Assembly: GCA_951406725.2 (NCBI GenBank)
Contig: OX597829.1
Location: forward strand, 54,250,001 to 54,314,000
Direction of reading: 5' to 3'
DNA from: Octopus vulgaris
Taxonomy: Eukaryota
Length of the DNA: 64,000 nucleotides
In this document: in pieces, positions 18,361 to 54,385 of the stretch
Position numbering within the stretch: position 1 is the first letter of the stretch
How the letters are laid out: the number at the start of each line of letters is the position of its first letter
The notes under the pieces: generated by a model
What the model was told of the DNA's origin: nothing
The model's input: only the letters and a program-made list of their open reading frames with translations
Databases searched by the model: none
Program-made: the position numbers and the translations under genes

Positions 18361-19217
18361 TCTTTACAATTGTTTTGTAGTCATTTCCCTTCCAACAAAT
18401 CATCTGGACTCAAGGCTGTTACAAAAGATGCCATGCAGTTGGATTGAACTTTGGACTCATGATTGCAAAGGGAATCTCTTCACCAGTTAGTTATATCTGC
18501 ATTCATTAACAGTCAGTAGGTACCATGGTATCACACTCCCAACCAAAGTAAAGATAGTTTGCATCTCATAGTATAATATATCTAATTTGTGTTCCTGACA
18601 TTTAATGCTCACTGACTCATGACACCTAACTTCAAAAATATATATCAGTGCCCCAGCATGGCCACAGCCTTAGGGCTGCTATATATAAAATAATATATTG
18701 TGTGATTGTTTGGTAAGAAGCTTGTTTCTCAACCACATGGTTACAGGTTCAGACCCACTGCGTGGCACCTTGGGCAAGTGTCTTCTACTATAGCCTCAGG
18801 TCGACCAAAGCCTTGTGAGTGGATTTGGTAGATGGAAACTGAAAGAAGCCCGTTGTATATGTGTGTGTCTGTGATTGTCCCCAACCACTGCTTAACAAGT
18901 GGTGTTGGTGTGTTTACATCCCCTGTAACTAAAAATTGTTCAAGGCAGAGCCCCAGCCTGGCCACAGTCTATTGACTGAAACAGGAAGAAGGCAGAAAAT
19001 AGCTGTTGTGAGCAATAGAACTAAAATGTGTCATTTCCTAACGATGTTGAGTTCAAGTTTCCTTTGTACCTAAACTGATGCAACCAGAAACTACTTTCTT
19101 TTTCATGGTTATTCCTGCTGACAAATCTTGGTCTCTTTTTTTCTAATACATTTGACAGCTGGTCTGTATTCAACTATGTAAATTGACGGATATTTGTCCT
19201 CATCTTGTTTGATTTTA

Positions 19218-19261
19218 ACATAACGTTTCAGCTGATATACCCTCCAGCCTTCATCAGATGT
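19218..19261 (-). ncRNA. Type I hammerhead motif, canonical core
   Basis: ACAU-CUGAUGA-a-GGCUGG-aggguaua-UCAGCU-GAAAC-GUU-AUGU. Confidence 0.85.
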
Positions 19262-19413
19262 CTTGGGGAAATTTCAAACCTGGGTTCTCATTCCTAAGGT
19301 ATTTTTCGATGTTGTTATTATTATTATTATTATTTATTATTATTCAGGTCACTGCCTGGAATCAAACTCGGAATTTTCGGCTTAGTAGCCCACACTCTTA
19401 ACCAGTATGCCAC

Positions 19414-21621: not shown

Positions 21622-21793
21622 AATAATATGTTACATTTACTCGATAGTCAGATAAAACTCTGAGTTTCAGATGCCGAAGTGGAAATCCATAACACCATCT
21701 CTTCGGTTCAAAGAGATGGTGTTGTGGATTTCCACTTTGGCATCTGAAACTCAGAGTTTTATCCTGACTATCGAGTAAATGTAACATATTATT
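21622..21793. repeat. ~82 bp-arm foldback between (TA)n tracts with a hammerhead-like motif
   Basis: Near-perfect inverted repeat with loop cggttca. Minus strand reads CCGAAGA-gaug...cauc-u-GAAAC-ucaga-GUU. Confidence 0.75.
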
Positions 21794-25212: not shown

Positions 25213-26289
25213 TATATGCAGCACATAATCAAGCCAGGTATTCCGTTCTTGCTGAAAGGAACAGTGAAATATTGGAAATGCCTCACTTTGCTTCCACTGT
25301 GTCTATAATCGCCAAAACAACACCTACAATTGCTGCAAGTCCCCTGGATACTGATTGTAATACCTTTTGGAAGGAAAATAATCTTTGTCCAAAGTCAGTA
25401 ACAAACATTGAGATACAAGATGTAAAACAAACTACTGGCTGCTATTTTTGCATCTGTTCTTCTGCTCTTAATACTGTTGTATCACAAAGTTTATGGTTTG
25501 CTGAGGGGGAAGTGATAATCAACAATCGTACCCAGAATTCAAAACCCTATCAGTTCAGTAACAGGGAAAAAGGCCACAGTGTATCAAGTATCCATTTTTG
25601 GTTGTGACTGTCCTTATCAGGTGATCTTGACTCATATTTCAGCGAATCATTGTTCTGATGCATTTGTATGGTGACACGATTAATGGAAATTTGACTCCAA
25701 ACTGCAGGAAACTCAAGACAGAGGATTCATAAAGATTTCCGTGGTTAACTGGTAGTTATGCCACTCCAACTTCTTGCATAAAAAAGATCACATCTCACCA
25801 AGTATGACTGCATAACATTTTCTTCTCTTGCCAAGCATGCAATCTCACATACTGAGCTACTGGTATTCAGCTTCACAGCTTTTGGTAAAGTAACAATCTT
25901 AACGTCAATCTGTGAATAAAATGTTAATAAAATTTAGATATTGTGATGAAGTTTTATTTGGGAGTAGCATGCTGCCAGACCAAATAATCCAGCTCCCAAC
26001 CAACCCACAACACAATGGTATAAAACTGAAAGGTAAGCATTATTCTTATGTTAAAGTATTCTTAAAAATCTGTGTAGTGCTTTTATTTTTGATTGAGATT
26101 TTCAGAAGCAGAATAGCTGTGAATATGGTGGCTTCTCATGAGATCTTAGTCAAACAAATTGTAAATATTATACAACTGAGAGAGCGAGAGACTTATACAT
26201 TTACCTAATTTTCTGCTACACAGAAAATTTATAGAGGGGTTTATAAGCCCTCTGGAACTTCTGGAAGTCTCACAGCCTCATCCAGCCGT

Positions 26290-27620
26290 CACAATTTGGA
26301 TTTATTCCTAACTCCAGCTGCTGTAATCAACTCATTGAGTTTCTTGAGGACGTTACCCAAATCACTGATCACGGATCCTGGGTGGATGTTGTTTACCTGG
26401 ACTTTGCTAAGGCTTTTAACTCTATGCCACACAAAAGACTTATGGTGAAGCTCTCTGCGTTGGGCGTAAGAGACAAACTCTATAACTGGTTGAAGTCCTT
26501 TATTTTCGGCCGAAAAGAGGTTGTCACAGTTCTAGGACAGCACTCTTTGCCCTATGAGATGACATCTGGTGTACCACAGGGATCTGTTCTTGGCCCCCTT
26601 TTATTTGTTGCATATGTTAATGACATAGATGCCAACTTAAAGAATGCCACAGTGCTGAAATATACAGATGACATCAAGCTGTACCTCGAAATAAAGAGGT
26701 CAGATCCTGTACACTATAGATCTCTATTGCAAGCAGACCTGGACACAATGCAGCAGTGGATCATGGACTGGCAACTCAAGCTGGCTGTGGACAAATGTAC
26801 CACCATGCATTTTGGGAGGAGAAACCCAGCATCCACCTACTCCCTCCACAACACTAATCTCAAAAAGTCTTCATGTGAACGTGACCTGGGTGTTATTGTC
26901 GATAGTGATTTGTGTTGGACAAAACACATCACTAAAATTGTCAAGAAGGCTGAGGGTGTCTTGGCATCACTCACCAAATCCTTTGTGAGCCGCTCTCCGA
27001 CTATCTATCTGCAGCTTTATATAGCTATGGTAAAACCTCACCTGGAATTTGCATCACCGGCCTGGAACCCCTATCTTGCCCAGGACATCAATCGTCTGGA
27101 AGCTGTTCAGTGACGTGCAACCAAAAGAATACCCTCCATCAAGCATTTGCCATATTCTGAACGCCTTACTTCCCTGGGCATGGACACATTGAAACTCTGA
27201 CGTCTGGCAGCTGACTTGGCAGACACCCATAAAATTATCAACCATCTTACAAACAATAACTCTGAGCACCTTTTCAAACTCCATCTGTCTAACACCCGTG
27301 GACATATTTACAAAGTAAGAAAACAGCACATCTCCCATGACTTCAGGAAACATTTTTTCACGCTAAGAGTTGCTGAAGCATGGAACAAACTGCCGGCATC
27401 AGTTGTTAGTTGTCGGAGCACTGCATCCTTCAAAACTTCCATGCTTTCTGAGATTCGTCAACACTACACCTGATTTTCTCCCCTCCATACACACACAAGC
27501 ATGTATCTGACTCATACATTGTTCGCTTTCCAGACATTTGTACATTACTGCATATGCTTTATACACACTTTTGACAAGTTGTGGTGCACCTGAGCACTGT
27601 ATACAATAATTTCATTATTA
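26290..27620 (+). mobile_element. CR1/L2-group LINE 3' half (RT), decayed
   Basis: DVVYLDFAKAF, SGVPQGSVLGPLLF, YTDD, ERDLGV, TRGH and WNKLP motifs; in-frame stops; (ATT)n-like end. Confidence 0.9.
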
Positions 27621-29597: not shown

Positions 29598-29680
29598 TAA
29601 ACCGGCCATCACCAGGAATATATATATATATATATGCATATATATATATAATTGCATATATATATGCATATATATATGAT

Positions 29681-29720
<40 letters not shown>

Positions 29721-29742
29721 TGCATATATATATATATATATA

Positions 29743-31533
29743 TATTCCTGGTAAGGCAGCTGCAGGAGAAATACCTAGCCAAGGATAAGCCCCAGTACCT
29801 GGCTTTCGTTGACATGGAGAACGCCTTTGATAGGGTCCCCCGATCCCTTATCTGGTGGTCAATGAGGAAACTAGGGATAGATGAATGGCTGGTGAGGGCT
29901 GTGCAAGCCATGTACAGAGATGCCGTAAGTAAGGTTAGGGTTGGCAACATGTACACAGAAGAATTCAAAGTAGAGGTTGGGGTCCACCAGGGTTCAGTAC
30001 TCAGCCCCCTCCTATTTATCATAGTCCTCCAGGCAATTACGGAGGAATTCAAGACAGATTGCCCCTGGGAGCTCCTCTACGCTGACGACCTTGCTCTAAT
30101 TGCTGAGTCACTATCAGAACTGGAGGAGAAGTTCCAGGTGTGGAAGGAGGGCCTAGAATCGAGGGGCCGTAGAGTCAATCTAGCTAAAACCAAAGTCGTA
30201 ATAAGTAGGAAGGTAGACAATCCACAAATGTCTTCAGGAAGATGGCCCTGCTCGATCTGTAGAAAAGGTGTAGGTAGAAACTCTATAAGATGTACCCAGT
30301 GTAAGCTATGGACACATAAGAGGTGCAGCAATGTCAAAGGTAGGCTAACTGGGAAGATAGTTTTTGTATGTGGCAGATGCTCGGGAGCATTAACCTCCGA
30401 AAATCTACAGAAAACAACTTCCATCACTTTCCAGGGGGAAAAACTAGAAGTAGTTGATAGCTTCCGTTATCTAGGTGACCAAGTCAGTAGTGGGGGTGGG
30501 TGTGCTGAAAGTGTAACTGCTAGAGTAAGAATAGCCTGGGCAAAGTTTAGGGAGCTCTTACCTCTGCTGGTGACTAAAGGCCTCTCGCTCAGAGTAAAAA
30601 GCAGACTGTATGATGCATGTGTACGAACAGCCATGCTACATGGCAGTGAAACATGGGCCGTGACTGCTGAGGACATGCGTAAGCTTGTGAGGAATGAAGC
30701 CAGTATGCTCCGATGGATGTGTAATGTTAGTGTACATACTCGACAGAGCGTTAGTACATTGAGAGAAATGTTGTACCTAAGAAGCATCAGATGTGGTGTG
30801 CAAGAAAGATGATTGCGCTGGTATGGTCATGTGGCGAGAATGGATGAAAATAGGTGTGTGAGAAAGTGCCAATCCCTAGCAGTTGAGGGAACCCGTGGAA
30901 GAGGTAGACCTAGGAAAACCTGGGACGAGGTGGTGAAGCATGACCATCGAACTTTGGGCCTCACTGAGGAAATGACCAGCGACCGAGACCTTTGGAAATA
31001 TGCTGTACGTGAGAAGACCAGGCAGGTCAAGTGAGCCCATCCCACTTATGCATGCCTTTCCTCCCTTGGACACAAAGACCTGTTGAGGCAAGCGAAGTTG
31101 ATATAGAACCTCATCCGACGACAGGCATCCATACCAACCCCCTTTGCTTGCGAAGACATTTTGGGGCAAGCGAAATTGAAATCGAATTGAACCAGCCAGG
31201 ATCCCTGGTCTGGTGGTACGTAAAAAGCACTATCCGACTCGTGGCCGATGCCAGCGCCGCCTCGACTGGCCTCCGTGCTGGTGGCACGTAAAATACACCA
31301 ATCCGACCGTGGCCGTTGCCAGCCTTGCCTGGCACCTGTGCAGGTGGCACGTAAAAAGCACCCACTACACTCACGGAGTGGTTGGCGTTAGGAAGGGCAT
31401 CCAGCTGTAGAAACATTGCCAGATAAGACTGGAGTCTGGTGCAGCCATCAGGCTTCCCAGATCCCCGGTTGAACCGTCCAACCCATGCTAGCATGGAGAA
31501 CGGACGTTAAACGATGATGATGATGATGATGAT
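29743..31533 (+). mobile_element. 5'-truncated RTE LINE (RT, PHD finger, 3' UTR, (GAT)n tail)
   Basis: [24 protein letters not shown]; one premature stop at 30810-30812. Confidence 0.95.
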
Positions 31534-31824: not shown

Positions 31825-34690
31825 AATCCTTAAATCCTTAAAAATGTTTTAGCCCGAAGGCCGCGGCCATGCTGGGGCACCACCGCTGAATGAGCTACAC
31901 TAGTTTGTGAATCCACCTCTGATACGTGGCACTTGATCAACAAGGGAGTTCGATGCTGCTGCCCGCATCCGTGTCTCCTGTCGTGAGGTAGGTTCATCTG
32001 GGACTCCCAACAAGAAGAGATCCAGTTTAGTTTTAAAGAAACCCACATCCACACCATGTAAGTCTCTCAGGCATTTAGGGAGGATGTTAAAGAGCTGTGG
32101 TCCTCTGAAACCCAAGCTGTTGCAGTATCTGGACCTGTATTTTGATGGTGATGTTGGAATCCTTGGCACCACGCAGCGGCGCCCCGTTCTGCGGTTGGAG
32201 TAACTTTGAATGCCAAAGTTTGGGACAAGACCCTCCAGGATTTTCCAGATGTATATCACTGCATATCTCTCCCACCTCCGCTCCAGGGAGAAGAGGTTTA
32301 ATACCTTCAGTCTTTCCCAGTAGCTGACATTTTGCATTGAGACGATTTTCTTTGTGTAGCTTCTCTGAGTTGCTTCGAGTTCTGCTGTTTGTTTTATATT
32401 GTGTGGTGACCAAAGTTGGGAGCAGTAGTCCAAGCGGCTGAGGACAAATGTTTTCCATAGGACCATCAGTGTCTCCTTCTCTCTTGTTCTGAAAGTTCGG
32501 AGAATCCATCCAGCTAGCCGTCTGCATTTTATCACCAGATTAGCAATATGCATTTGGAAAGATGCATCATTGCTCATGTCAATGCCCAGGTCACGCACTG
32601 ATTTTGACTCAGGGATTGCAATTCTTCCTGGGCCAGTGTATCCAGTCTTCACGTCATTTACCTTTGTGTGCCAGTAGCGCAGGGCCTGGAACTTACCTGC
32701 ATTAAACTGCATGTTGTTGTCCTCAGCCCACCTGTATATTGTGTCCAGCTCATGTTGCAGATGCGCAATATTTTCAGGGTTTTGTATTGCGTGGGAGACT
32801 TTTGTGTCATCTGCATAGCTAGCAAGGGTGGTCATCGTAGCAACTGAAGGCATGTCTGAAAGGGCCACTATGAACATCAGTGGCCCCAAGACAGTGCCCT
32901 GTGGGACACCGCTTGTTATTTGCGTTTCCCTGGAGGTGGCTCCATTGCTCACAACTGCCTGTTTTCTGTCTTTTAGGAAGTTGTGCAGCCACTCTCCAAG
33001 TTTCCCACCTATGCCGAGACCACGCAGTTTGTGACAGATCATACCATGGTCGACTTTATCAAAGGCTTTTGCAAAGTCAAGATATATTACATCCACATTT
33101 GAGCCATTTAGTAGCTGTTTCAACACCCAGTCATAGTGTTGCAGGAGCTGTGTTAGGCAGCCTCTACCTGGTCGAAATCCATGCTGGGTGTCAGACAGTA
33201 AGTCATTTTCTTCAAGGAACATGATTAGTTTCTTACGGACTATTCGTTCCATGACTTTGCTGATGTGTGAGGTCAGAGAGATAGGCCTATAATTTTTAGC
33301 ATCTGCTCTGCTACCTCCCTTATGGATAGGGCATATTACCCCCTCTTTCAGTTTGACTGGGAGCTTACCACTTGCAAGAAAGCTCTGAAAAAGAAGCTGT
33401 AGCGGTTTTGCAAGGGCTCGTTTGCACGATTTGAGAAGGATCGCTGGGAATCCATCAGGTCCAGCAGCTGAGTTTGTGTCAATCTCATCAATGGCTAGTG
33501 TGATATCATCTTCTTCAATGTTGATGTACTCAATTTTTGTCTCTTTGGCCGCTGGTAAAGTGGCAAAGAATTCTTCTGGGTTGTTTACTTGCCTGTGTCC
33601 TAGAGGTGTAGTGAACACACTTTGGAACTGTTCGTTCAGTATTTCACTTATCCTCGTGGGATTTCCTGTGAGAGAGCCATCTTTTTGGAAGAGAGGTCCT
33701 ATTCTCTGGTGCACTGTGGCTGTCTCTTTGGCAAACTTAAAGAAAGCTTTAGGGTTTGATTTTATATTTTCTATTACCCAAGCTTCTTTATCTGCTCTTT
33801 CCTTTTCATGGGACTGATGTAGACTTTTCTCAGTTTCCATTAGCATTCTTTCGAGCCGAGACTTCTCACCACTTTTGGTGTGCTTGCTCAGGCGGTTTGC
33901 AATCCTTGTCCGTCGTCTCATAAGAATCCTCCTTTCTCTAGGGATCCTGTTTTTGTTCTTGTGTGTGCTGGCCCTGCACATTGGGACATATTTGTCACAT
34001 ATGGCTTGTATTATGGACATGAAGTGTTTGTGTTTCATGTTTATGTCCGGTGTGGAGAGACATTCAGGCCAATCCTGTTTGAGGATCTCTTTCTCAATCG
34101 ACTTCCAGTTGGCTTTATGAAAGTTTAAGTTGGAGAGATGGTGGGTGCTTCGTATAGGCTGTGTGTCTGCGGGGGCTTTTGTTCCATACATAGACAGCTC
34201 TATTATGTTGTGATCCGAGATCATTGTCGGCATCACATTAACATTATGGATAATATCCATATTGTTTGTGAAGCAGAGATCCAGTATATTATCTGCCCTT
34301 GTTGGTTGCAGAACTATTTGCTCCATGAAAGAGGTATTTGTGAGATGGAGCAGGGACTCCACCTGTGCCTGCTGATGGTGTGTCATCCCTGGGAGCATCT
34401 GCCCCCCAGGCCATTCCACATTGGGGAGGTTAAAGTCACCCATGAAGAATACACTGTTGTGCTGTTCAAGGTTGGTGAGGACTTCTATTTTTATTAGGCA
34501 GTCTTCAAACATGCCTGAGTGTTTTGGGGCGTCTGGTGGGCGATATGTAGTGCATATGACGATATTCAGTTGTCTTATGTGTACAATTTGAGTTTCACAT
34601 ACTGAGTTTGAATATGACAGCAGGACCTGGGGCGTGAGGTCATCTCGGATGTACATTGCAACTCCACCATGGCTCCTCCCTTTTCTATCT
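31825..34690 (-). mobile_element. Young CR1/L2-group LINE: partial APE endonuclease + RT ORF (~930 aa), 3' UTR and 8-mer tail
   Basis: GGVAMY, YRPP, GDFN, SDH, NYRPISLT, QHGFR, LDFAKAFD, GVPQG and YADD in one open frame (stop at 31900-31902); tail (taaggatt)2; 5' end abuts (TA)n. Confidence 0.95.
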
Positions 34691-34778
34691 GTATATATAT
34701 ATATATACCGGAGTAAACACATAAATGTGAAACAAGGTGGAAAAAAGAGTACTCAAATACCAGTGGTAGAGTAATATG

Positions 34779-34936
34779 CTTTATTTTAAGCAGCAGAAAA
34801 TTCAACAAAATCTGTTACTCTGAGTTTCTCGTTGCCGTTCATCAGACAGTTTTTGCTAGCAAAAACTGTCTGATGAACGGCAACGAGAAACTCAGAGTAA
34901 CAGATTTTGTTGAATTTTCTGCTGCTTAAAATAAAG
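34779..34936. repeat. Perfect 158 bp palindrome with a hammerhead on each strand
   Basis: Centre gct|agc at 34857/34858; the arms are exact reverse complements. Confidence 0.9.
34866..34903 (+). ncRNA. Minimal type I hammerhead motif (mirror copy at 34812-34849, -)
   Basis: CUGU-CUGAUGA-a-CG-gcaa-CG-a-GAAAC-UC-a-GA-GUA-ACAG. Confidence 0.8.
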
Positions 34937-35186
34937 TATATATATATATATATATATGCATATATGCATATATATATATGCATATATATATATATATGCA
35001 TATATGCATATATATATATGCATATATATATATATATATATATGCATATATATATATATATGCATATATATATATATATATATGCATATATATATATGCA
35101 TATATGCATATATATATATATATATGCATATATATATATATATATGCATATATATATATATATATATGCATATATATATATATATA

Positions 35187-38100
35187 TATGCTGAGGGAAC
35201 TAGACTACTGGAATTCTGTGATGCATGTAACCTTTCAATCTGCAACACTAACTTCAAGAAGCCAGTCTGCCACCTTATAACTTATCAGTCAGGAGACTCC
35301 GCTAGCCAAATAGACTTCATCCTCACCAGACAACGGGATGCAGGGTTGCTCTTGAATACAAAGACCCTCCCGGGTGAAGAATGTATCCCTCAGCATAGAC
35401 TAATCATCAGTGACTTTAAGCTTGAGGCCAGAAGGACTCCAAGAAACAAACCAATCCAGAAAAGAAGGATTTGGAGGCTAAAGAACCCTTCGCATGGTCA
35501 GAAATTTAGGGACATACTCATCAAGAAATTTGATGAGAGGGAAGAGGAGCTTCAGACGTCAGACATAGAAGGTAGCTGGGAATTCCTACGGGACAGCTTG
35601 TTGAGTGCCACAGACCAAGTTTGTGGATGGTGCAAAGTCCCTTCCAGACCTAGAATTACGTGGTGGTGGAATAGCGCAGTAGATAAAGCCATCTGTGAAA
35701 AGAGACGGGCCTGGAAAGCCTGGAAGGATGGGGGCAGCAGGGAACTGTACCAGATAGCCAAAAGGGAGGCTGGGCGGCAGGTATACATTGCCAAAGATGT
35801 AGCAGAAAAGAAGAAGTTTGCCAATGTCCAGCGTCGCGAGGATCAAAGAGCTGAAGTATTTCGGATTGCCAGACAGTGTGTCAGAGAAAATAGCGATGTT
35901 ATAGGAGAGAAATGTGTCCGCATGGATGATGGGGCACTTGCTTTTACTACTAGTGAAAAGAAAGAGGCTTGGAGAAGCCATTATGAAAGACTGCTAAATG
36001 AGGAGAATGAATGGGAGGAGGAGAGCCTGCCAAATGTTGACCCAGTAGAGGGACCAGCTACCCGAATAGACAGCTCCCTTGTAGATAAGGCAATTAAGGA
36101 TATGAAACCAGGCAAAGCCCCTGGCCTATCAGGAATCACTGCTGAGATGCTTAAAACAGCTGGCTATGTGGGCCATGCCATAGTCACCCGCATTGTAAAC
36201 CAGGTAGTTCACAATGGAGCCATACCCAATGACTGGTGCAGCAGTACCATAGTCAACTGCTACAAGGGTAAGGGTGATGCTCTAGATAGAAATAACTACA
36301 GAGGTATCAAACTGTTGGACCAGGTGATGAAGGTCTCAGAGAAGGTCATAACCAATCTCATTAGGGAGAGAATTTGTTTAGATGAAATGCAGTTCGGTTT
36401 TGTACCAGGTAGAAGCACCACTGATGCTATATTCCTGGTCCGACAACTGCAGGAGAAGTACCTAGCTAAAGATAAACCCCTCTACATAGCTTTTGTAGAC
36501 TTGGAGAAAGCCTTTGACAGGGTTCCCCGTTCCCTTATCTGGTGGTCGATGCGGAAACTGGAGATTGAAGAATGGCTAATAAGGGCTGTACAGGCTCTAT
36601 ACAGAGAGGCTGTTAGCAAGGTTAGGATTGGCAACGAATATAGTGAAGAATTCCGAGTAGAAGTAGGTGTGCACCAGGGCTCAGCCCTCAGTCCCCTTTT
36701 GTTCATCATAGTCCTTCAAGCAATAACAGAGGAATTCAAAACGGGATGCCCCTGGGAGCTCCTCTATGCCGATGACCTAGCTCTCATAGCAGAATCACTA
36801 CCGGAACTAGAAGAGAAATTTCGGGTATGGAAGCAAGGGTTGGAATCAAAGGGCCTTAGAATAAATGTAGCAAAGACCAAAGTATTAGTAAGCAGCAAGA
36901 GGTACTCAACACACATCCCCTCAGGTAGGTGGCCCTGCTCAACCTGTAGGAAAGGTACAGGTAGAAACTCCATAAGATGCACCCAATGTAAGTTATGGAC
37001 ACATAAGAGGTGCAGCAACATTAAAGGGAAATTAACAGATAAGATAGCTTTCATGTGCGGCAGATGCACAGGGACAATAGACACAACAGACACTCAGAAA
37101 ACAGATTCCATCACACTCCAGGGAGAGAAACTAGAAGTAGTTGATAGTTTCCGCTACCTGGGAGACCAAGTTAGTAGCGGAGGTGGATGCACAGAGAGTA
37201 TCACCACTAGAATACGAATAGCCTGGGCAAAGTTCAGAAAGCTCCTACCCCTACTGGCAACAAAAGGCCTCTCCCTCAGAGCAAAAGGTAGATTGTATGA
37301 TGCATGTGTGCGAACTGCCATGCTTCACGGTAATGAAACATGGGCTGTGACTGCAGAAGACATGCGTAGACTTGAAAGAAATGAAGCTAGCATGATCCGC
37401 TGGATGTGTAGTGTCAGTGTGCACGCAAAACAGAGTGTAAGTATCCTGAGAGAAATGCTGGATATAAGAAGCATCAGATGTGGTGTGCAAGAGCGACGCT
37501 TGCGATGGTATGGTCATGTGCTGCGGATGGATGAAGAGAGATGTGTGAAGAAGTGCCACTCCCAAACAGTTGAAGGTATCAGGGGGAGAGGTAGACCCAG
37601 GAAGACATGGGATGAGGTGGTCAAGCATGACCTCAGAGCATTGGGCCTCACTGAGGCAATGGCGAAGGACCGAGATCTCTGGAGATATGCTGTGACTACA
37701 AAGACCCGGGCTGCTTTCTGCAGCAATTCCACATACCCCCTACCCATTCTAAGTACCCCGGATCCCCAAAGTACCCCGGATCCCCAAAGTACCCTGGATC
37801 CCCAAAATACCCCGATCCCCAAAGTACCCCGGACCTCGTTGCCCCCGTGCCGCTGACACGTTAAAATGCTCGAACCGATCGTGACGATGCCGGACCCTCC
37901 GGCCCCTGTGCAGGTGGCACGTAAAAAGCACCCAATCCACTCACGGAGTGGTTGGCGTTAGGAAGGGCATCCAGCCGTAGAAACTCTGCCAGATTCAGAC
38001 TGGAGCCTGGAGCGGCCCCTGGCTTCCCAGACCCGGTCAAACCGTCCAACCCGTGCTAGCGCGGAAAGCGGACGTTAAACGATGATGATGATGATGATGA

Positions 38101-38102: not shown

Positions 38103-38177
<75 letters not shown>

Positions 38178-38217
38178 TATATATATATATATATATGCAT
38201 ATATATATATATATATA

Positions 38218-38269
<52 letters not shown>

Positions 38270-38364
38270 TATATATATATGCATATATATATATATATAT
38301 ATATATGCATATATATATATGCATATATATATATGCATATATATATATATATGCATATATATAT

Positions 38365-39504
38365 ATCAAGTGTTTCCTGACAGACAGATCTCAACATGTT
38401 GTAGTTGAATGGGTAAAATCAAGCCCAGCCAAAGTCAGTAGTGGCGTTCCGCAAGGCACTGTGCTGGGCCCACTTCTTTTCATCATTTACATTAATGACA
38501 TTAATGACATCATCAAGCACAGCAACATAAAAATCTTTGCAGATGACTCCAAGCTACAGAAGGTCATAAATGAGGCGAGTGACCGGACATGCCTTCAGTC
38601 AGATCTACTGGCTGTTATCCAATGGGCAGAAAAAAACAATATGCTGCTGAACGAGGATAAATTTGAGCTAATCCACTTTGGAAAAGAGGATGCCCTGAAA
38701 CTCCCATACTCCCTTCCTTCAGGTGAAACTCTCGCGGCGTCCAACAACATCAGAGACTTGGGAGTAATTGTGGACAACAACATAAGCTGGGCCACTCATA
38801 TAAACACCAAAGTTGACATGGCCCGCAGAATGTGTTCCTGGATTCTCAGAACTTTCCAGTCGAGAGATATCCACACCATTATCCTTCTCTTCTCCACTTT
38901 GCCCGACCCCACCTTGAATACTGTTGTCCACTGTGGTCTCCCCACACAATACAAGGTATCATAAAAGTTGAAGCACCTCAAAGGGCAATCACAAAAAAGA
39001 TAGATGGCATGACAGGCCTCGACTATTGAGGTCGACTAGAAAAGCTAAAACTCTATTCTCTCCAACGTCGTCGTGAGCGCTACATCATCTGCATGATGTG
39101 GAAAATATTCCATCAGCATTGCCCAAATGATGTTGGCATCACCTTTAAGGTACATCCAAGGCTTGGGCCCCGTGCCATCCGCCCAAAACAAAAATCGCAC
39201 TCTCATCTCATAACAACAATACGGCACAATTATTTCACCTCAATTGGCCCCGCTCTCTTTAACATTACACCAAAACACATTAAAACAGAAACTGACCCTA
39301 TAGGGTTCAAGAAGTCTTTGGACAGATTCCTTCAAGAAATCCCGGATAAACCCCCTACACCTGGATATGTCTCTGTAAACAATAACTCTCTACTTGAGTG
39401 GGCCATAGTGCCCAAATTCTGACTTGAAAGACTTCACCAGGTGGTGCTATTAAGTTAGACATGGCCTGGGCCAATAATGGCCGAAACCTATCAAAGTATC
39501 AAAG
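38365..39504 (+). mobile_element. CR1/L2-group LINE 3' portion, copy 1
   Basis: [23 protein letters not shown]; frameshift near 38898 and stop at 39027-39029; tail (tatcaaag)2. Confidence 0.9.
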
Positions 39505-39528
39505 TATATATATATATATATATATATA

Positions 39529-39566
<38 letters not shown>

Positions 39567-39580
39567 TATATATATATATA

Positions 39581-39674
<94 letters not shown>

Positions 39675-39700
39675 TATATATATATATCTATATATATATA

Positions 39701-39806
<106 letters not shown>

Positions 39807-40090
39807 TATATATATATATATGCATATATATATCTATATATATATATGCATATATATATATATATATGCATATATATATCTATATATATATATGCATATA
39901 TATATATATATATGCATATATATATCTATATATATATATGCATATATATATATATGCATATATATATATATGCATATATATATATGCATATATATATATA
40001 TATCTATATGTATATATATATGCATATATATATATATATATATGCATATATATATATGCATATATATATATATATATCTATATATATATA

Positions 40091-40537
40091 AAAATAATAG
40101 TTATCGCCATACTAATATGGCATTCTTATAAAAATAAGAAAAAAAGCTGTCCGCTTATTAGCTCCATGAGGCCATCGCCTTAAGTTAGCTATTTGATACA
40201 CAAACTGTATCCATATAACCTTCGAACAAGGGAGGTCAGTCGCTCCACACTACTTGACCGGCAGCTACAGACGCGTTTCGAGGTATTGCCCCTTTTCAAT
40301 GCAGCGTAGCCAGCCAGTAGGTGTCGCTTCCGACAATCTCTGTTCGATGGTTTTATTTACCTAGTTTCGGTGGAATACATCCACTTGTTTTCAATAATAG
40401 AAATATTAAAATAACTAAGTCTCTCTAAAAGAGAACAGCGGCAGCGTTCCCGGAAAATAATAGTTATCGCCATACTAATATGGCATTCTTATAAAAATAA
40501 GAAAAAAGCTGTCCGCTTATTAGCTCCATGAGGCCAT
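40091..40537 (-). mobile_element. Retrozyme-like ~363 nt monomer with ~85 nt terminal redundancy
   Basis: 40091-40175 is repeated at 40454-40537; contains the hammerhead at 40264-40305. Confidence 0.75.
40264..40305 (-). ncRNA. Type I hammerhead motif, U3-A8 variant
   Basis: GCUGCA-UUGAAAA-GGGG-caaua-CCUC-GAAAC-gc-GUC-UGUAGC. Confidence 0.8.
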
Positions 40538-41243
40538 ATAAACACCAAAGTTGACATGGCCCGCAGAATGTGTTCCTGGATTCTCAGAACTTTCCAGTCG
40601 AGAGATATCCACACCATTATCCTTCTCTTCTCCACTTTTGCCCGACCCCACCTTGAATACTGTTGTCCACTGTGGTCTCCCCACACAATACAAGGTATCA
40701 TAAAAGTTGAAGCACCTCAAAGGGCAATCACAAAAAAGATAGATGGCATGACAGGCCTCGACTATTGGGGTCGACTAGAAAAGCTAAAACTCTATTCTCT
40801 CCAACGTCGTCGTGAGCGCTACATCATCTGCATGATGTGGAAAATATTCCATCAGCATTGCCCAAATGATGTTGGCATCACCTTTAAGGTACATCCAAGG
40901 CTTGGGCCCCGTGCCATCCGCCCAAAACAAAAATCGCACTCTCATCTCATAACAACAATACGGCACAATTATTTCACCTCAATTGGCCCCGCTCTCTTTA
41001 ACATTACACCAAAACACATTAAAACAGAAACTGACCCTATAGGGTTCAAGAAGTCTTTGGACAGATTCCTTCAAGAAATCCCGGATAAACCCCCTACACC
41101 CGGATATGTCTCTGTAAACAATAACTCTCTACTTGAGTGGGCCATAGTGCCCAAATTCTGACTTGAAAGACTTCACCAGGTGGTGCTATTAAGTTAGACA
41201 TGGCCTGGGCCAATAATGGCCGAAACCTATCAAAGTATCAAAG
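40537..41243 (+). mobile_element. CR1/L2-group LINE 3' portion, copy 2 (near-identical to 38799-39504)
   Basis: Only ~3 differences seen by eye; reading frame intact. Confidence 0.9.
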
Positions 41244-41325
41244 TATATATATATATATATATATATATGCATATATATATATATATATCTATATATATAT
41301 ATATATGCATATATATATATATATA

Positions 41326-41387
<62 letters not shown>

Positions 41388-41830
41388 TATATATATATAT
41401 ATATATATCATCATCATCATCATCATCATTTAGCGTCCGTTTTCGTGTCAGCGGCTTTTACGTGTCACCGGCACGGGGGCCAGCCGAGGCTGGCAACAAA
41501 CACGAATGGATGGTACTTTTACGTGTCACCAACACGGGGCCAGACAGAGCTGGCAAACGGCCATGAACGGACGGTGCTTTTACGTGTCACCGGCACAGGG
41601 GCCAGCCGAGGCTGGCAACGAACACAAGCGGATGGTGCTTTTACGTGCCACCGACACGGGGCCAGACAGAGCTGGCAAACGGCCATGAACGGACGGTGCT
41701 TTTACGTGACACTGGCACAGGGGCCAGCTGAGGCTGGCAACGAACACGAACGGATGGTGCTTTTACGTGCCACTGACACGGGGGCCAGACAGAGCTATAT
41801 ATATCAATATATATATATATATATATATAT

Positions 41831-42170
41831 ATAATAGAAATATTAAAATTACTAAGTCTCTATAAAAGAGATTACGGCAGCTTTTACTGGAAATTAATTG
41901 TTATCGCCATATTAATATGGCATTCTTATAGATATAAGAATAATCGCTGCCGCTGGTCAGCTCCATGAGGCCACCGCCTTAAGATAGCTATTGATACACG
42001 ATCTGTATCCATTATAACCTTCGAACAAGGGAGGTCAGCCGCTTCACACTGCCAGTCCGACAGCTACAGACACGTTTCGGGGTATTGCCCCTTGTCAATG
42101 TAGCACAGTCAGACCCCGCAGGTGTCGCCACTGACGTCTCTGTTCGAAGGTTTCTATTTACCTAGTTTCA
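41831..42170 (-). mobile_element. Second, diverged and circularly permuted copy of the 363 nt unit
   Basis: Begins at the equivalent of 40394, crosses the monomer junction and ends at the equivalent of 40369. Confidence 0.75.
42063..42104 (-). ncRNA. Type I hammerhead motif, U3-A8 variant
   Basis: GCUACA-UUGACAA-GGGG-caaua-CCCC-GAAAC-gu-GUC-UGUAGC. Confidence 0.85.
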
Positions 42171-42188
42171 GTAATGATAATATATATA

Positions 42189-42840: not shown

Positions 42841-44403
<1,563 letters not shown>

Positions 44404-45275: not shown

Positions 45276-45390
45276 TATATATATTTAAAAAAGATGTGGA
45301 ACACGAGTTGTGATATATAAAAAAAGGAAATGAAGAAAATGCTGACAAAATAATTTAAGTAAGGGAGAGTGTATTTAATTAGGTGAAAGT

Positions 45391-45428
45391 TCTTTACCGG
45401 TTGCGCATTTGTTATGCTTATCAAAAGA
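45391..45428 (-). ncRNA. Minimal hammerhead motif of the Penelope 3' region (U3-A8, A13C)
   Basis: UCUU-UUGAUAA-GCAU-aacaa-AUGC-GCAAC-cg-GUA-AAGA. Confidence 0.65.
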
Positions 45429-45983
45429 TATTTTTTTAAGAGAGATAGAGTTCCTTTCTGATAGATTTTTTTCTCTTATCTGACTTTATGTTGGGTTTGC
45501 TGTCTCTTATATGTGAAAAAAGAGGCTCCAGAGTTGTTTAAGATTTGCTTGGTTTCGCGCCTAAAATTTCTTGTGGACAATGGTCAATACAATTTTGATT
45601 GATCATTATAAAGGGGTCACGTGAATGTTTGAATGGAAGTTGGTGTTGGGGTAAGAAAATAGGCTCCAGAGATGTTAAAATTTGGCTAGTGTCGCGCCTA
45701 AAATTTCTTATTGGTCATAATAAAGAGGTCACGTGGATGTGGTCATAATAGAGAGGTCATGTGAATGTTTAGAATGAATGTTGATGTGGGTGGTGCATGG
45801 AGTTTTCGAAAATAGCGTTGTTGAAAATTCTTATTGTTCAGGCTGGTCAGTAGACGTCATGTGGATATTTTAAATAGCTTTTTAGTGCGTAGTTAAGGAG
45901 TGTATTTTCCGCTTGACTGAATTTGAGCTGGATAAGTAAGTTCGTTTAGGACAGGAAGAGCTATATGTATGTATGTGTGCGCG

Positions 45984-46016
<33 letters not shown>

Positions 46017-46300
46017 ATATATATGTTGGGGCGCGCGCGCGTGTATATATGTGTGCGTGTGTGGGTACAATTTTCAATATTTATAGTTCTGCTGGCCTTG
46101 TGCCTGTATCGGGAAGCAACGTATTTGTGTGAAGTCAATATTTACAGTCATTTCCAAAAAATAGTGTTGGATGTTTTGCACCCGTATCAAATTATGTGTA
46201 TGTGTGGAACCATATATTTGCGTGTGTCATGGTGTTAATATCTGGGTAAAAGTGTGTGTAGGGTGTGTGCAGGTGTAAGTGTGTTTGTTGTGGGTTCGTG

Positions 46301-46765
46301 TTAGGGGGATGTGTTTAGAAGTGGTCTGTATTTATTAATAAGGTGGGATTCCATGGTTATTCGCTGGGTATGAGTGGCACTGTCTTTAAATTTGTAGAGG
46401 GGAAAGATTCTAAAATTGGGATGAAGTTGTGCGGCACAGGTATCAATATGTGCACTAAGTGCTATTTTTCTGTATTCCTGTATTTTTATTTGGGATCTGT
46501 GGACAGTCATGCGTTGGCGGAGGCTATTTTTAGTTTGGCCTATGTAGTGTTCATTACAGCCCGAGCAAGTTAAGACATATACTAGGTTTTCTGATGTGCA
46601 TGTGAAGTTGTGTTTTACTGTGAAACATTGTCCTTGTTTAAAAAGGAATTCTGGACCTTCTATTAGGTTGATGCATATACCACAGTTGGGTCTATTGCAT
46701 TTGTTTACTGTGGGTTTAGTTGTTGTGATTGGCAGTACTTTGGCATTTATTAGGATGGTTTTCAA
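46301..46765 (-). pseudogene. GIY-YIG endonuclease of the Penelope-like element (separated from the RT by a stop)
   Basis: Cys linker CNRPNCGIC, then NLVYVLTCSGCNEHYIGQTKNSLRQRMTVH..E..I..LN. Confidence 0.9.
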
Positions 46766-46792
46766 TGATTTCGTGTGTTAGGAGGATTTGGT

Positions 46793-47947
46793 TCATTCTA
46801 GAGTATGGGGTTTCGATGTAACAGGTTTAGGGCGTCTAAGTTCCTGTGTGCTGAGTTTTAGGGCACGTTGGATCCCATTGTCAATTAGTGACGTGGGGTA
46901 ATCCCTGCTTGTTAATGTGTCCTTAAGTTCTTGTAGAGGTAAGAGACGGGTGTTTTTATTGGAGACTATAGTGCAAATTCTCTTGGCTAAGTTGTAGGGA
47001 ATGTTAATTTTAACATGTCTAGGGTGGCATGAATTGAAAGGGAGGTATTGCTTGGAGTCTGTGGGCTTGTAGTATATGTCTGTTTCTATTTTTTTGTTGT
47101 GAATTTTAATGAGGATGTCGAGGAAGGGAATTTGTTGACGGCTGTATTCCATTGTGAAAATAATGTTTGTGTTGAGCCCATTTATAAGGGTGTGAAATTC
47201 TTTTAGCTTCTCGATGGTTTCGGGCCAAAGGATGAAGCAGTCATCAAGATATCTCTTCCAGTTCTTCTCTATGTGTGTGTGGAGAGTGGTGCCAAATTGG
47301 TTAAGAACGTTATTATAGGGAGTGATTTCCAGGTATCCCATGACTAGGTTGGCGTAAGTGGGAGCTGTTTTCGTTCCCATTGCCGTCCCTGATTTCTGTC
47401 TGTAGAATTTGTTGTTGAAGGTGAAGAAATTATTCTCTAAGATGAATTTGAGTCCTTCTAAAATAAATTCCTTTTTGATGCGGTGTGGGAGTTCGTTGGA
47501 GTAATTATCCAGCCAGAATTGGATAGCTTCTATTCCTAGATTGTGGGGGATGTTGGAGTAAAGATTAACTACATCGAATGTTACTAGCAGGGTTTGTTCA
47601 GCAAGAAGTGTATTGGGGAGGTGGTTGAGCATATCTAGATCGTCCCTTATGTAGCTTTTAATGTGTTTGAGGAAGGGCTTGAGAAGGGTATCAATGAAGT
47701 TGCTAAGGCGGTGGGTTTCGCAAGCGGGACCTGCTATTATAGGTCTCAATTTGAGGTCATTTGGTGAGGGGACATTGATTACAGAGTTTGTGGCTTCCTT
47801 GCATGCCTTACTTATTAATTCGCTTTTATGAATTTTGGGAATACCGTAGAAGAGGCTGGTTTTACTAGTGAAATTTGTGATGAAGTTGAATTCTTTGTTA
47901 GTGAGTTCTTCTTTGTGGGGGTTGATCAGGGTTTTTAAGTTTCTCAT
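46793..47947 (-). pseudogene. Penelope-like reverse transcriptase
   Basis: FYGIPKIHK, LRPII, FDVVNLYSNIP, GTAMG, RYLDD, IPFLD, YYKPT, SCHP. Confidence 0.92.
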
Positions 47948-48049
47948 AATTTTCTGTTGATTGTAGTGTTCAGCCTATATATATATATATGCATATATAT
48001 ATGCATATATATATATATATATATGCATATATATATATATATATATATA

Positions 48050-48412
48050 CATGCAGGTGACACGTAAAAGCACCATCCATTCGTGGCCGTTTGCCAACCC
48101 TGTCTGGCCCCCGTGTCGGTGGCATGTAAAAGCACCATCCGTTCGTGTCCGTTGCCAGCCTCGCCTGGCCCCATGCCGGTGACACGTAAAAGCACCATCC
48201 GTTCATGGCCGTTTGCCAGCTCTGTCTGGCACCTGTGTGGATGGCACGTAAAAAGCACCCACTACACTCACGGAGTGGTTGGCGTTAGGAAGGGCATCCA
48301 GCCGTAGAAACACTGCCAGATCTGACTGGGCCTGATGAAGCCTTCCAGCTTCACAGACCCCAGTTGAACCGTCCAACCCATGCTAGCATGGAGAACGGAT
48401 GCTAAATGATGA

Positions 48413-48451
<39 letters not shown>

Positions 48452-49073
48452 TATATATATAAACATATGGCTTCTGTGCCGGTGGCACATAAAAAGCACC
48501 AACCGATCGTGGGATCCCGGAACATCTCGCTGTGCTTGAGGAGACCTGTTGAGTCAAGTGCATGTACATGAACATCGAACCAAATATCAATGGAAACAGT
48601 AGTTGTGATACCTGTGCCGGTGACACATAAAAAGCACCATCCGAACGTGGCTGTTGCCAGTGCAGCCTCCACTGGCTTCTGTGCCGGTGGCACATAAAAA
48701 GCACCATCCGAACGTGACCGATGCCAACCCTGCCTCGAATGGCTTCTGTGCCGGTGGCACATAAAAAGCACCATCCGAATGTGGCCGATGCCAGCACCGC
48801 TTTGACTGGCTTCTGTGCCAGTGGCACATAAAAAAGCACCAACCGATCGTGGCCGATGCCAGACCCCTCTGGCACCTGTGCAGTTGGCACGTAAAAAGCA
48901 CCCACTACACTCATGGAGTGGTTGGCGTTAGGAAGGGCATCCAGCTGTAGAAACACTGCCAGATCAGACTGGAGCCTGGGGCAGCCCCTGGCTCTCCAGA
49001 CCCCCGGTCGAACCGTCCAACCCGTGCTAGCGCGGAAAACGGACGTTAAACAATGATGATGATGATGATGATG
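48050..49073 (+). repeat. Two RTE 3' UTR/tail fragments with ~58 nt tandem units
   Basis: Repeated tggcac(g/a)taaaaagcaccatcc units ending in conserved (GAT)n tails; similar arrays at 41455-41790, 53470-53700 and 62860-63190. Confidence 0.85.
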
Positions 49074-53199: not shown

Positions 53200-54385
53200 C
53201 CAGGAAGACCTGGGATGATGTGGTGAAGCATGAGCTTTGAACATTGGGCCTCACTGAGGCAATGGCAAATCAACAAGACCTTTGGAGGTATTCTGTGCTT
53301 GAGAAAATTCGGCAAGACAAGTGAGACCGTACCCATGGCCTATGCCAGTGCAGCATAACCAACCCATTTAAAAGTACCTTTCAATCATTGGGCAATAAAC
53401 TGTGCTGTGTTGACCTGTTGAAGCAAGTGAAGTCATTGTCGTGACCGATGACAGTATCGCCAGATTGGCACCCATGCTGGTGGCATGCTAAAAGCACCAT
53501 TTGAGCATGGTCAATTGCCAGTGCTACCTAACTGGCTCCCATGCTGGTGGCATGTAAAAAGCACCATTCGAGCATGGTCGTTGCCAGTGCCACCTAACTG
53601 GCTCCTGTACCAGTGGCACATAAAAAGCACCATTTGAGGATGATTGATGCCAGTACTGCCTGACTGGCCCTCATGCCAGTGGCATGTAAAAAGCACAAAA
53701 ACACTCTTGGAGTGGTTGACATTAGGGAGGGCATCCAGTTGTAGAAACTTTACCAGATTAGATTGGAGAGTGTTGCAGCCTTCTGGCTTGCCAGTCCTCT
53801 GTTGATCCATCCATCCAACCCATGCCAGCATGGAAAAACGGACATTAAGCGACAATGATGATGATGATGATGATGATATATATAGGCGTTAGGAAGGGTA
53901 TCCAGCCGTAGAAACATTGTCAGATCAGACTGGGCCTGGTGCAGCCTTCTGGCTTCCCAGACCCCAGTTGAACCATCCAACCCATGCTAGCATGGAAAGC
54001 AGATGCTAAATGATGATGATGATGGTATATATATGTATATAATTATATTTATATATATATAAATGGAGTTAAACTCAGATGCTATTCAAATCTTTATACT
54101 TCCATCATATGCAAAATCGCAGTCGTGACAGATACCAGTGTCATACAAATTGGCCAGTGGCACATAAAAGCACCCATTACACTCTTGGAATAGTTGGCAT
54201 TAGAAAGGGCATCCAGCTGTAGAAAACCATGCCAAATCAGACTGGAGTCTGGTGCAGCCTTTCAGCATGCCAGCCCAGTCAAACTGTCCAACCCATGCCA
54301 GCATGGACAATGGATGTTAAATGATGATGATAATGACGATGGCGATGATAATGATGACAATGATGTATATATATATATATATATA

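Follow-up and report, generated by a model that had tools for sequence, protein, structure and literature searches.

Organization of the Hammerhead Repeat

The window analyzed here (the whole stretch of 64,000 nucleotides from the Octopus vulgaris contig OX597829.1) contains two copies of a hammerhead repeat, copy 1 and copy 2, both on the minus strand. Coordinates refer to the window, and the features at and between the two copies are:

39505..40090, no strand, microsatellite of the (TA)n type bordering copy 1 at its 3′ end
40091..40537, minus strand, copy 1, subfamily A, 1.23 units, 99.6% identity to a natural A unit
40264..40305, minus strand, predicted type I hammerhead of copy 1, with a U3-A8 core, a 4-bp stem II and a palindromic helix III
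40394..40453, minus strand, the 60 nt that separate the two fixed 3′ ends (inner and outer), a Penelope-type tail that is internal in copy 1
40536..41243, plus strand, duplicate of the adjacent LINE 3′ piece (38798-39504, 99.6% identity), attached to copy 1 at its 5′ end
41796..41830, no strand, (TA)n tract bordering copy 2 at its 3′ end
41831..42172, minus strand, copy 2, subfamily B, 0.94 unit, 98.5% identity to a natural B unit
42063..42104, minus strand, predicted type I hammerhead of copy 2, with a U3-A8 core, a short palindromic helix III and a C at the free position 7

Positions within the unit were numbered from the predicted hammerhead cut, which falls between 40270 and 40269 in copy 1 and between 42069 and 42068 in copy 2. 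The 3′ end of copy 1 lies at the inner of two fixed sites of the family (position 178 after the predicted cut) and its 5′ end is truncated at position 95; the 85 nt of terminal redundancy reported in a preliminary description of the locus were recovered with 98.8% identity and one indel in a run of A residues. Copy 2, a single arm flanked by TA tracts, ends at the outer fixed site (position 238), and its 5′ end is truncated at position 261. As had been described, it is diverged and reads across the supposed monomer junction of copy 1, aligning at 85% to a doubled monomer. The two copies had been taken for versions of one element with a unit of 363 nt, but they belong to separate subfamilies, each with 97–100% identical relatives elsewhere (among the 40 scored of 1224 first-look candidates for copy 1 and the 40 scored of 2088 for copy 2). 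Natural cut-to-cut units are 362 nt long in subfamily A and 364 nt in subfamily B, and the extra base in the earlier figure is private to copy 1.

Subfamilies A and B are about 85% alike and both are young. A search of the genome (2.8 Gb, 227 contigs) with a shared 30-mer returned 2776 exact matches compared with 0 for the reversed control, far more than chance would give; the family is dispersed in the genome. The first 100 of these matches correspond to 45 loci, which extrapolates to roughly 1200 A and B loci as a lower bound. The units have a GC content of 0.42 (362 nt) and 0.43 (364 nt), the longest open reading frame (ORF) on the unit has 38 amino acids, and the A and B insertions are made of unit sequence only, with no LTR-flanked internal region. 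Judged by its sequence, the retroelement is a noncoding, nonautonomous non-LTR retrozyme with a 362–364-nt unit. This label, proposed earlier, agreed with every DNA-level feature tested; the circular intermediate proposed along with it is likely as well, although on evidence other than that first put forward.

Two further groups of noncoding relatives with inverted arms were found. Subfamily C (loci L182–L210, where L-numbers denote genomic loci; 2078 candidates) is an older relative of the unit with about 80% identity to A. Family F (L212–L240; 3271 candidates) is more distant and has a canonical C3-G8 core and a longer palindromic helix III.

Conservation of the Hammerhead and Folding of the Unit

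The type I hammerhead is kept in both copies, as previously noted, and its exact intact core has 1220 matches in the genome compared with 0 for the control. Twelve hammerheads from A, B, C, and F were aligned, with 93.8% of the cells paired and 26 two-sided changes; none of 500 shuffles scored as high and slid controls were at most 60% paired, a shuffle count that is not a probability for a set of related sequences whose structure was drawn from the same sequences. Across subfamilies the core pair 3-8 alternates between U-A and C-G while position 7 is free, and the self-complementarity of helix III is kept through changes (duplex −6 to −16 kcal/mol, with −3.9 kcal/mol for copy 2's own variant). 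This pattern indicates that the hammerhead is under constraint. The differences between the two copies that had been cited as preserving pairing are of another kind: the change in stem I (GCUGCA versus GCUACA) is a one-sided alternation of G-U and A-U, and CCUC in stem II is a private G-C to G-U change of copy 1 in a family that has CCCC. True two-sided stem changes occur only across the older subfamilies.

The U3-A8 core is known from Penelope-like elements (PLEs) of Schistosoma (PMC4209133). The self-complementary helix III fits the dimer mode of minimal metazoan hammerheads set out in the same source, and dimer cleavage of such hammerheads is restated in a review (PMC6765202). An Rfam scan of the window gave no hammerhead among the best 150 of 271 matches.

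Folding of the monomers, suggested earlier as a check, gave circular folds far better than those of 40 shuffles for both units (z = −8.6 and −10.5). Counting on the other side, the reverse strands folded well too (z about −6), and fold energies were similar for the linear and the circular form.

Fixed 3′ Ends, Inverted Arms, and the Target

Arm ends were mapped onto the unit for all 45 loci behind the first 100 position-ordered 30-mer matches on the largest contig. Arms at a locus edge or with less than 85% identity were dropped, leaving 80 arms. The 3′ ends of 35 arms fall at positions 168–181 (inner) and those of 37 arms at positions 229–243 (outer), with 8 elsewhere; 72 of the 80 ends are thus found within 29 of 362 positions (p of about 1e-69 compared with a uniform phase). 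The two fixed ends are about 60 nt apart, a TA-rich repeat follows 62 of the 72 canonical ends, and the arms of subfamily C mostly end at the same two sites.

Start phases mapped on the circular unit therefore form two sharp peaks with no spread, and random circular permutation was rejected because the 3′ ends are fixed. Copies 1 and 2 appear permuted relative to each other because their ends are offset by 60 nt and their 5′ truncations differ; their phase difference, previously read as a sign of circular permutation, reflects an inner and an outer fixed 3′ end together with ordinary 5′ truncations. Likewise, the junction placed at 40453/40454 is the inner fixed 3′ end, whereas the ribozyme is predicted to cut at 40270|40269.

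Inverted pairs of arms, joined 5′ end to 5′ end, were found 30 times in the 45 position-ordered loci and 75 times in a set of 114 loci from which duplicates and the window's own loci had been removed (the duplicated locus L172 was counted twice). The 75 pairs consist of 59 that combine an inner with an outer end, one outer-outer pair, one inner-inner pair, and 14 with one noncanonical end, so that 59 of the 61 pairs with two canonical ends combine one of each. The 5′ ends are variably truncated, with an excess at positions 21–60 (19 observed, about 9 expected) and another at positions 201–220 (11 observed, 3 expected). The former cluster lies inside a long predicted stem and could mark a stall or a transcript start.

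In the window, the (TA)n tract at 39505..40090 is likely to have been both target and primer for copy 1. The LINE duplicate meets the 5′ end of copy 1 at a 3-nt microhomology and occupies the position that a second inverted arm would normally take. We infer that the cDNA end switched template onto the neighboring DNA, which replaced the usual second arm.

The ends, the tail, the inversion, the target and the hammerhead type are all as in PLE termini, which raises the alternative that the copies are no more than truncated terminal repeats from a longer Penelope element that encodes protein. The preliminary description had named an origin from fixed linear termini of a longer Penelope tandem as the outcome that would speak against it, and the termini are indeed fixed and Penelope-type. 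However, no longer element with an ORF was found attached, and seamless multi-unit arms exist: upstream of the 3′ end lies another lap of the unit and never an ORF. The tblastn matches in A and B loci come from distinct PLE insertions that lie across microsatellites or in flanking DNA, and there were 0 matches in 30 C loci and 0 in 30 F loci; no ORF with the reverse transcriptase (RT) and GIY-YIG domains of an autonomous PLE was found in the repeat at the A, B, 30 C, or 30 F loci. This alternative is very improbable.

Multi-Unit Arms and the RNA Template

The arms are up to 5.5 units long and 25 of 72 exceed one unit. All 196 passes over the predicted cut site are free of indels, and none of the 35 arms that reach the site stops within 8 nt of the cut. 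A cut linear monomer would limit the cDNA to 178 or 238 nt and pile up 5′ ends at position 1, the opposite of what is seen.

The distribution of sequence variants was then compared among the units of an insertion. Only substitutions were counted and the complex or duplicated loci L002, L013, L014, and L172 were left out; a position-specific one-base deletion was discarded as an alignment artifact within a homopolymer. Variants shared by both arms of an insertion were found in every further tandem unit in 24 of 26 cases, that is, in 22/22 cases in subfamily A (six loci) and in 2/4 cases in subfamily B (three loci), the two exceptions being CpG transitions. Of 34 arm-site cases for subfamily markers outside CpG sites, 33 were uniform (A 27/28, B 6/6). 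In A arms with at least three passes over the variant site, 13 variants occur in every unit, 1 in part of the units, and 25 in a single unit, while all 12 variants in the corresponding B arms are single-unit; the single-unit variants are read as later mutations. The clearest case is L147, with ten variants in all 5–6 units, three of them seen nowhere else. Many of the common variants are linked subfamily markers and not independent, leaving few independent cases, and locus-private variants in at least three units come from only three loci (L147, L153, and L033).

The age of the arrays was assessed in 20 arms of at least two units with an inverted partner. Tandem units differ by 0.49% from each other and by 0.51% from the inverted arm; as the units are as different mutually as they are from the inverted arm, the arrays were laid down at insertion.

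Taken as repeated copying of one molecule, the seamless junctions and shared variants in these DNA footprints suggest that the template was probably a circular monomer RNA. Among 23 sequencing runs listed, none is recorded as RNA; contigs from four of the runs cover the unit, and strand, ends, and circularity are not readable from such contigs. One run yielded a single 392-nt contig (362+30) that might be taken for a closed loop, but it was left unused, since tandem DNA yields the same shape.

Seamless junctions and one haplotype per insertion are predicted equally well if the same element and a PLE enzyme used a linear RNA slightly longer than one unit, with repeated strand transfer from the 5′ end to the matching sequence in the 3′ region and no ligation. 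The excess of 5′ ends at positions 21–60 could then mark the transcript start, and hammerhead cleavage is reported to be dispensable for PLE insertion in vitro (PMC11167929). On the other hand, such a template needs up to five precise successive transfers (L147, L071) and leaves the conservation of the hammerhead core and the dimer palindrome by compensatory changes unexplained, whereas circles are the documented abundant form in the mussel, coral, and axolotl retrozymes treated in PMC7229834. A linear template is therefore considered unlikely.

The arrays could also have arisen by tandem expansion at the DNA level, with long linear read-through RNA from homogeneous arrays copied once, an expansion of the type proposed for vertebrate retrozymes (bioRxiv 10.64898/2026.07.22.740005). 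One arm of L003 shares variants in only two of five units, which points to some later DNA duplication, the locus L172 is duplicated, and L147 and L095 have no inverted arm by which the arrays could be dated. Against this, the units within an arm are no younger than the inverted arm, the arrays are short and dispersed and each has PLE-type ends, and about ten different haplotypes each extend through every unit of the insertion that carries them, which would call for equally many separately homogenized donors. DNA-level expansion is given a low probability, well below that of the linear template, and the circular monomer RNA is retained as the preferred template.

Penelope-Like Elements in the Genome

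The window also holds a truncated PLE (45285-47974, minus strand) that lies between TA tracts, lacks its 5′ part, and consists of an RT piece, a break, and a piece with the cysteine linker and GIY-YIG domain. A genome search with this element, a member of family P1, led to two young families, P1 and P2. Both have intact 784-amino acid ORFs with RT and C-terminal GIY-YIG domains (in many intact copies for P1), and their cysteine linker, which is that of the Neptune and Nematis clades, suggests that they are Neptune-type. Both also carry U3-A8 hammerhead-like motifs and are inserted in (TA)n. The motif of P1 has GCAA instead of GAAA in five of five loci inspected and may be inactive.

Inverted pairs in these families match a short end with a long one, the two being 34 nt apart (four P2 loci and two P1 loci). 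The P2 loci (L141, L142, L144, L145, L173, L174, L178, and L180) are very young, and the P2 unit of 4.42 kb contains an upstream ORF in addition to the 784-amino acid ORF, with three tandem units at one locus. The 4.4-kb tandem units of this autonomous Penelope likewise represent one haplotype: two full units at one locus show no substitution outside a masked simple repeat, and seven variants are common to the tandem units of L174.

The termini of P1 and P2 showed no similarity to the hammerhead unit by blastn or nhmmer (105 of 19124 PLE candidates were scored). Their tail of 34 nt, compared with 60 nt in the repeat, counts against either as the partner, and the search by way of diverged unit relatives led only to the older noncoding groups C and F and to no partner PLE. 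Pieces of at least four further PLE families lie in the flanks of L022, L036, L044, L080, L162, and L168, and several of them terminate in hammerhead-like motifs of the U3-A8 type that have CCGG as helix III. Overall, mobilization of the hammerhead repeat by a PLE-type enzyme is highly probable.

Proposed Mechanism and Relation to Known Systems

The explanation that we favor, and hold to be reasonably probable as a whole, is a non-LTR retrozyme with two fixed 3′ ends whose circular monomer RNA is copied by the RT/GIY-YIG enzyme of a PLE. Multi-unit copies would be transcribed, and two hammerheads would pair via the palindromic helix III and cut out monomers. The monomers would be ligated into circles, in which a lone hammerhead would cut poorly. 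The PLE enzyme would cut both strands of a (TA)n tract, and one cDNA would be primed from each DNA end, at RNA positions of about 178 and 238. Each cDNA would be extended around the circle until it detaches, and the ends of the two cDNAs would be joined. Copy 1 would be an arm from the inner start, its end likely resolved through copying of adjoining DNA, and copy 2 a lone outer-start arm. Two published observations count against this explanation: in the in vitro work on a PLE, the RNA used as substrate was predominantly uncut (PMC11167929), and 8/9 Xenopus retrozyme dimers were uncleaved (bioRxiv 10.64898/2026.07.22.740005).

Non-LTR retrozymes were defined by Cervera and de la Pena (2020), who reported circular RNAs in coral, mussel, and axolotl and named PLEs as a strong candidate for their mover (PMC7229834). 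The octopus family resembles these metazoan elements (about 350–390 bp in mussel) in having a type I hammerhead in each unit, tandem units within the range of 150–450 bp, a GC content below 50%, no coding capacity, and a highly paired monomer. It differs in its U3-A8 core variant and in its two fixed 3′ ends, tail, inverted twin arms, and microsatellite targeting, which the passages on retrozymes there do not describe (the words “inverted” and “microsatellite” are absent from its main text); in addition, circular RNA was shown there, and the evidence here consists of DNA footprints.

A second likeness is to nonautonomous PLEs (MRC1 and other Chlamys derivatives; PMC8557442), which are head-to-tail multicopy elements with no ORF and co-occur with autonomous PLEs, and the same applies to vertebrate retrozymes regarded as PLE derivatives (bioRxiv 10.64898/2026.07.22.740005). 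Unlike the octopus repeat, which does not match P1 or P2, those nonautonomous PLEs usually resemble the terminus of an autonomous family. The 2026 preprint derives vertebrate retrozymes from PLEs on the basis of co-occurrence and terminal similarity and favors local DNA expansion (10.64898/2026.07.22.740005), whereas the insertion footprints described here point to multimers made at insertion.

Partial tandems, an inverted 5′-truncated copy, a tail of 30–40 bp at one end, and a bias toward microsatellites are features of PLE insertions according to Craig et al. (PMC8557442). In the in vitro study of Anolis Poseidon by Frangieh et al., reverse transcription began at two sites inside the RNA, which define the tail, and AT-rich DNA was cut on both strands (PMC11167929). 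The octopus repeat shares with these Neptune and Poseidon PLEs the two internal starts, the tail at one end, the inverted 5′-truncated copy, the AT-rich or (TA)n target, and a dimer-type hammerhead. In contrast, its tail is about 60 nt long compared with 30–40 nt, it has no ORF, and the distance from the hammerhead cut downstream to its two starts is 178 and 238 nt, compared with about 60 and 95 nt in P2.

A circular template for PLE tandems was already put forward as a hypothesis in 2014 (PMC4209133). We tentatively extend the mechanism to rolling-circle reverse transcription by a Penelope enzyme on one circular RNA, simultaneously from two starts that each belong to one end of a cut (TA)n tract, a process that would also build the pseudo-LTR tandems of autonomous Penelope elements, and rate this extension at slightly less than an even chance. 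Which enzyme mobilizes animal retrozymes, and how Penelope makes tandem and inverted ends, are open questions in the literature; if true, the rolling-circle reading would answer who moves the retrozymes and how Penelope tandems form. The octopus genome provides about a thousand young insertions with a Penelope tail, in which the tandem units look like the product of copying one template repeatedly, together with intact young Neptune-type ORFs, so that the choice between a circular and a linear template can be tested in the existing in vitro PLE assay.

In the openly accessible literature, and apart from repeat libraries, a PLE tail or one-haplotype arrays on retrozyme insertions were not found, and no publication on hammerheads in octopus concerned this family, as judged by title. 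The family may already be named in a repeat library. The element class is known, and the octopus family is new to it, with unusually clear mechanistic footprints.

Other Features of the Window

A second, unrelated hammerhead repeat with a unit of about 504 nt and a redundancy of 52 nt occupies 42843-43398 (minus strand) and 43605-44072 (plus strand). Its hammerhead has a canonical core, a long stem II, and a stable stem III, and its inverted arms lie in (TA)n with 3′ ends that differ by about 85–90 nt. It likely represents a further nonautonomous family of PLE type whose tail is different. At about 19215-19265 (minus strand) there is a third hammerhead-like motif, which has a canonical core and a minimal helix III.

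LINE-type RT ORFs are present at 26247-27113, 29652-30812, 31900-34752, 34935-37856, and 38104-38964, two of them with a weak PHD-finger match and one with an endonuclease domain. Related tandem repeats of 60–67 nt (41454-41796, 48050-48220, 48612-48902, and 53466-53696) are apparently part of a common interspersed repeat. A near-perfect 158-nt hairpin at 21629-21786, which has a below-threshold Rfam match to MIR6217, is probably a small inverted-repeat transposon.
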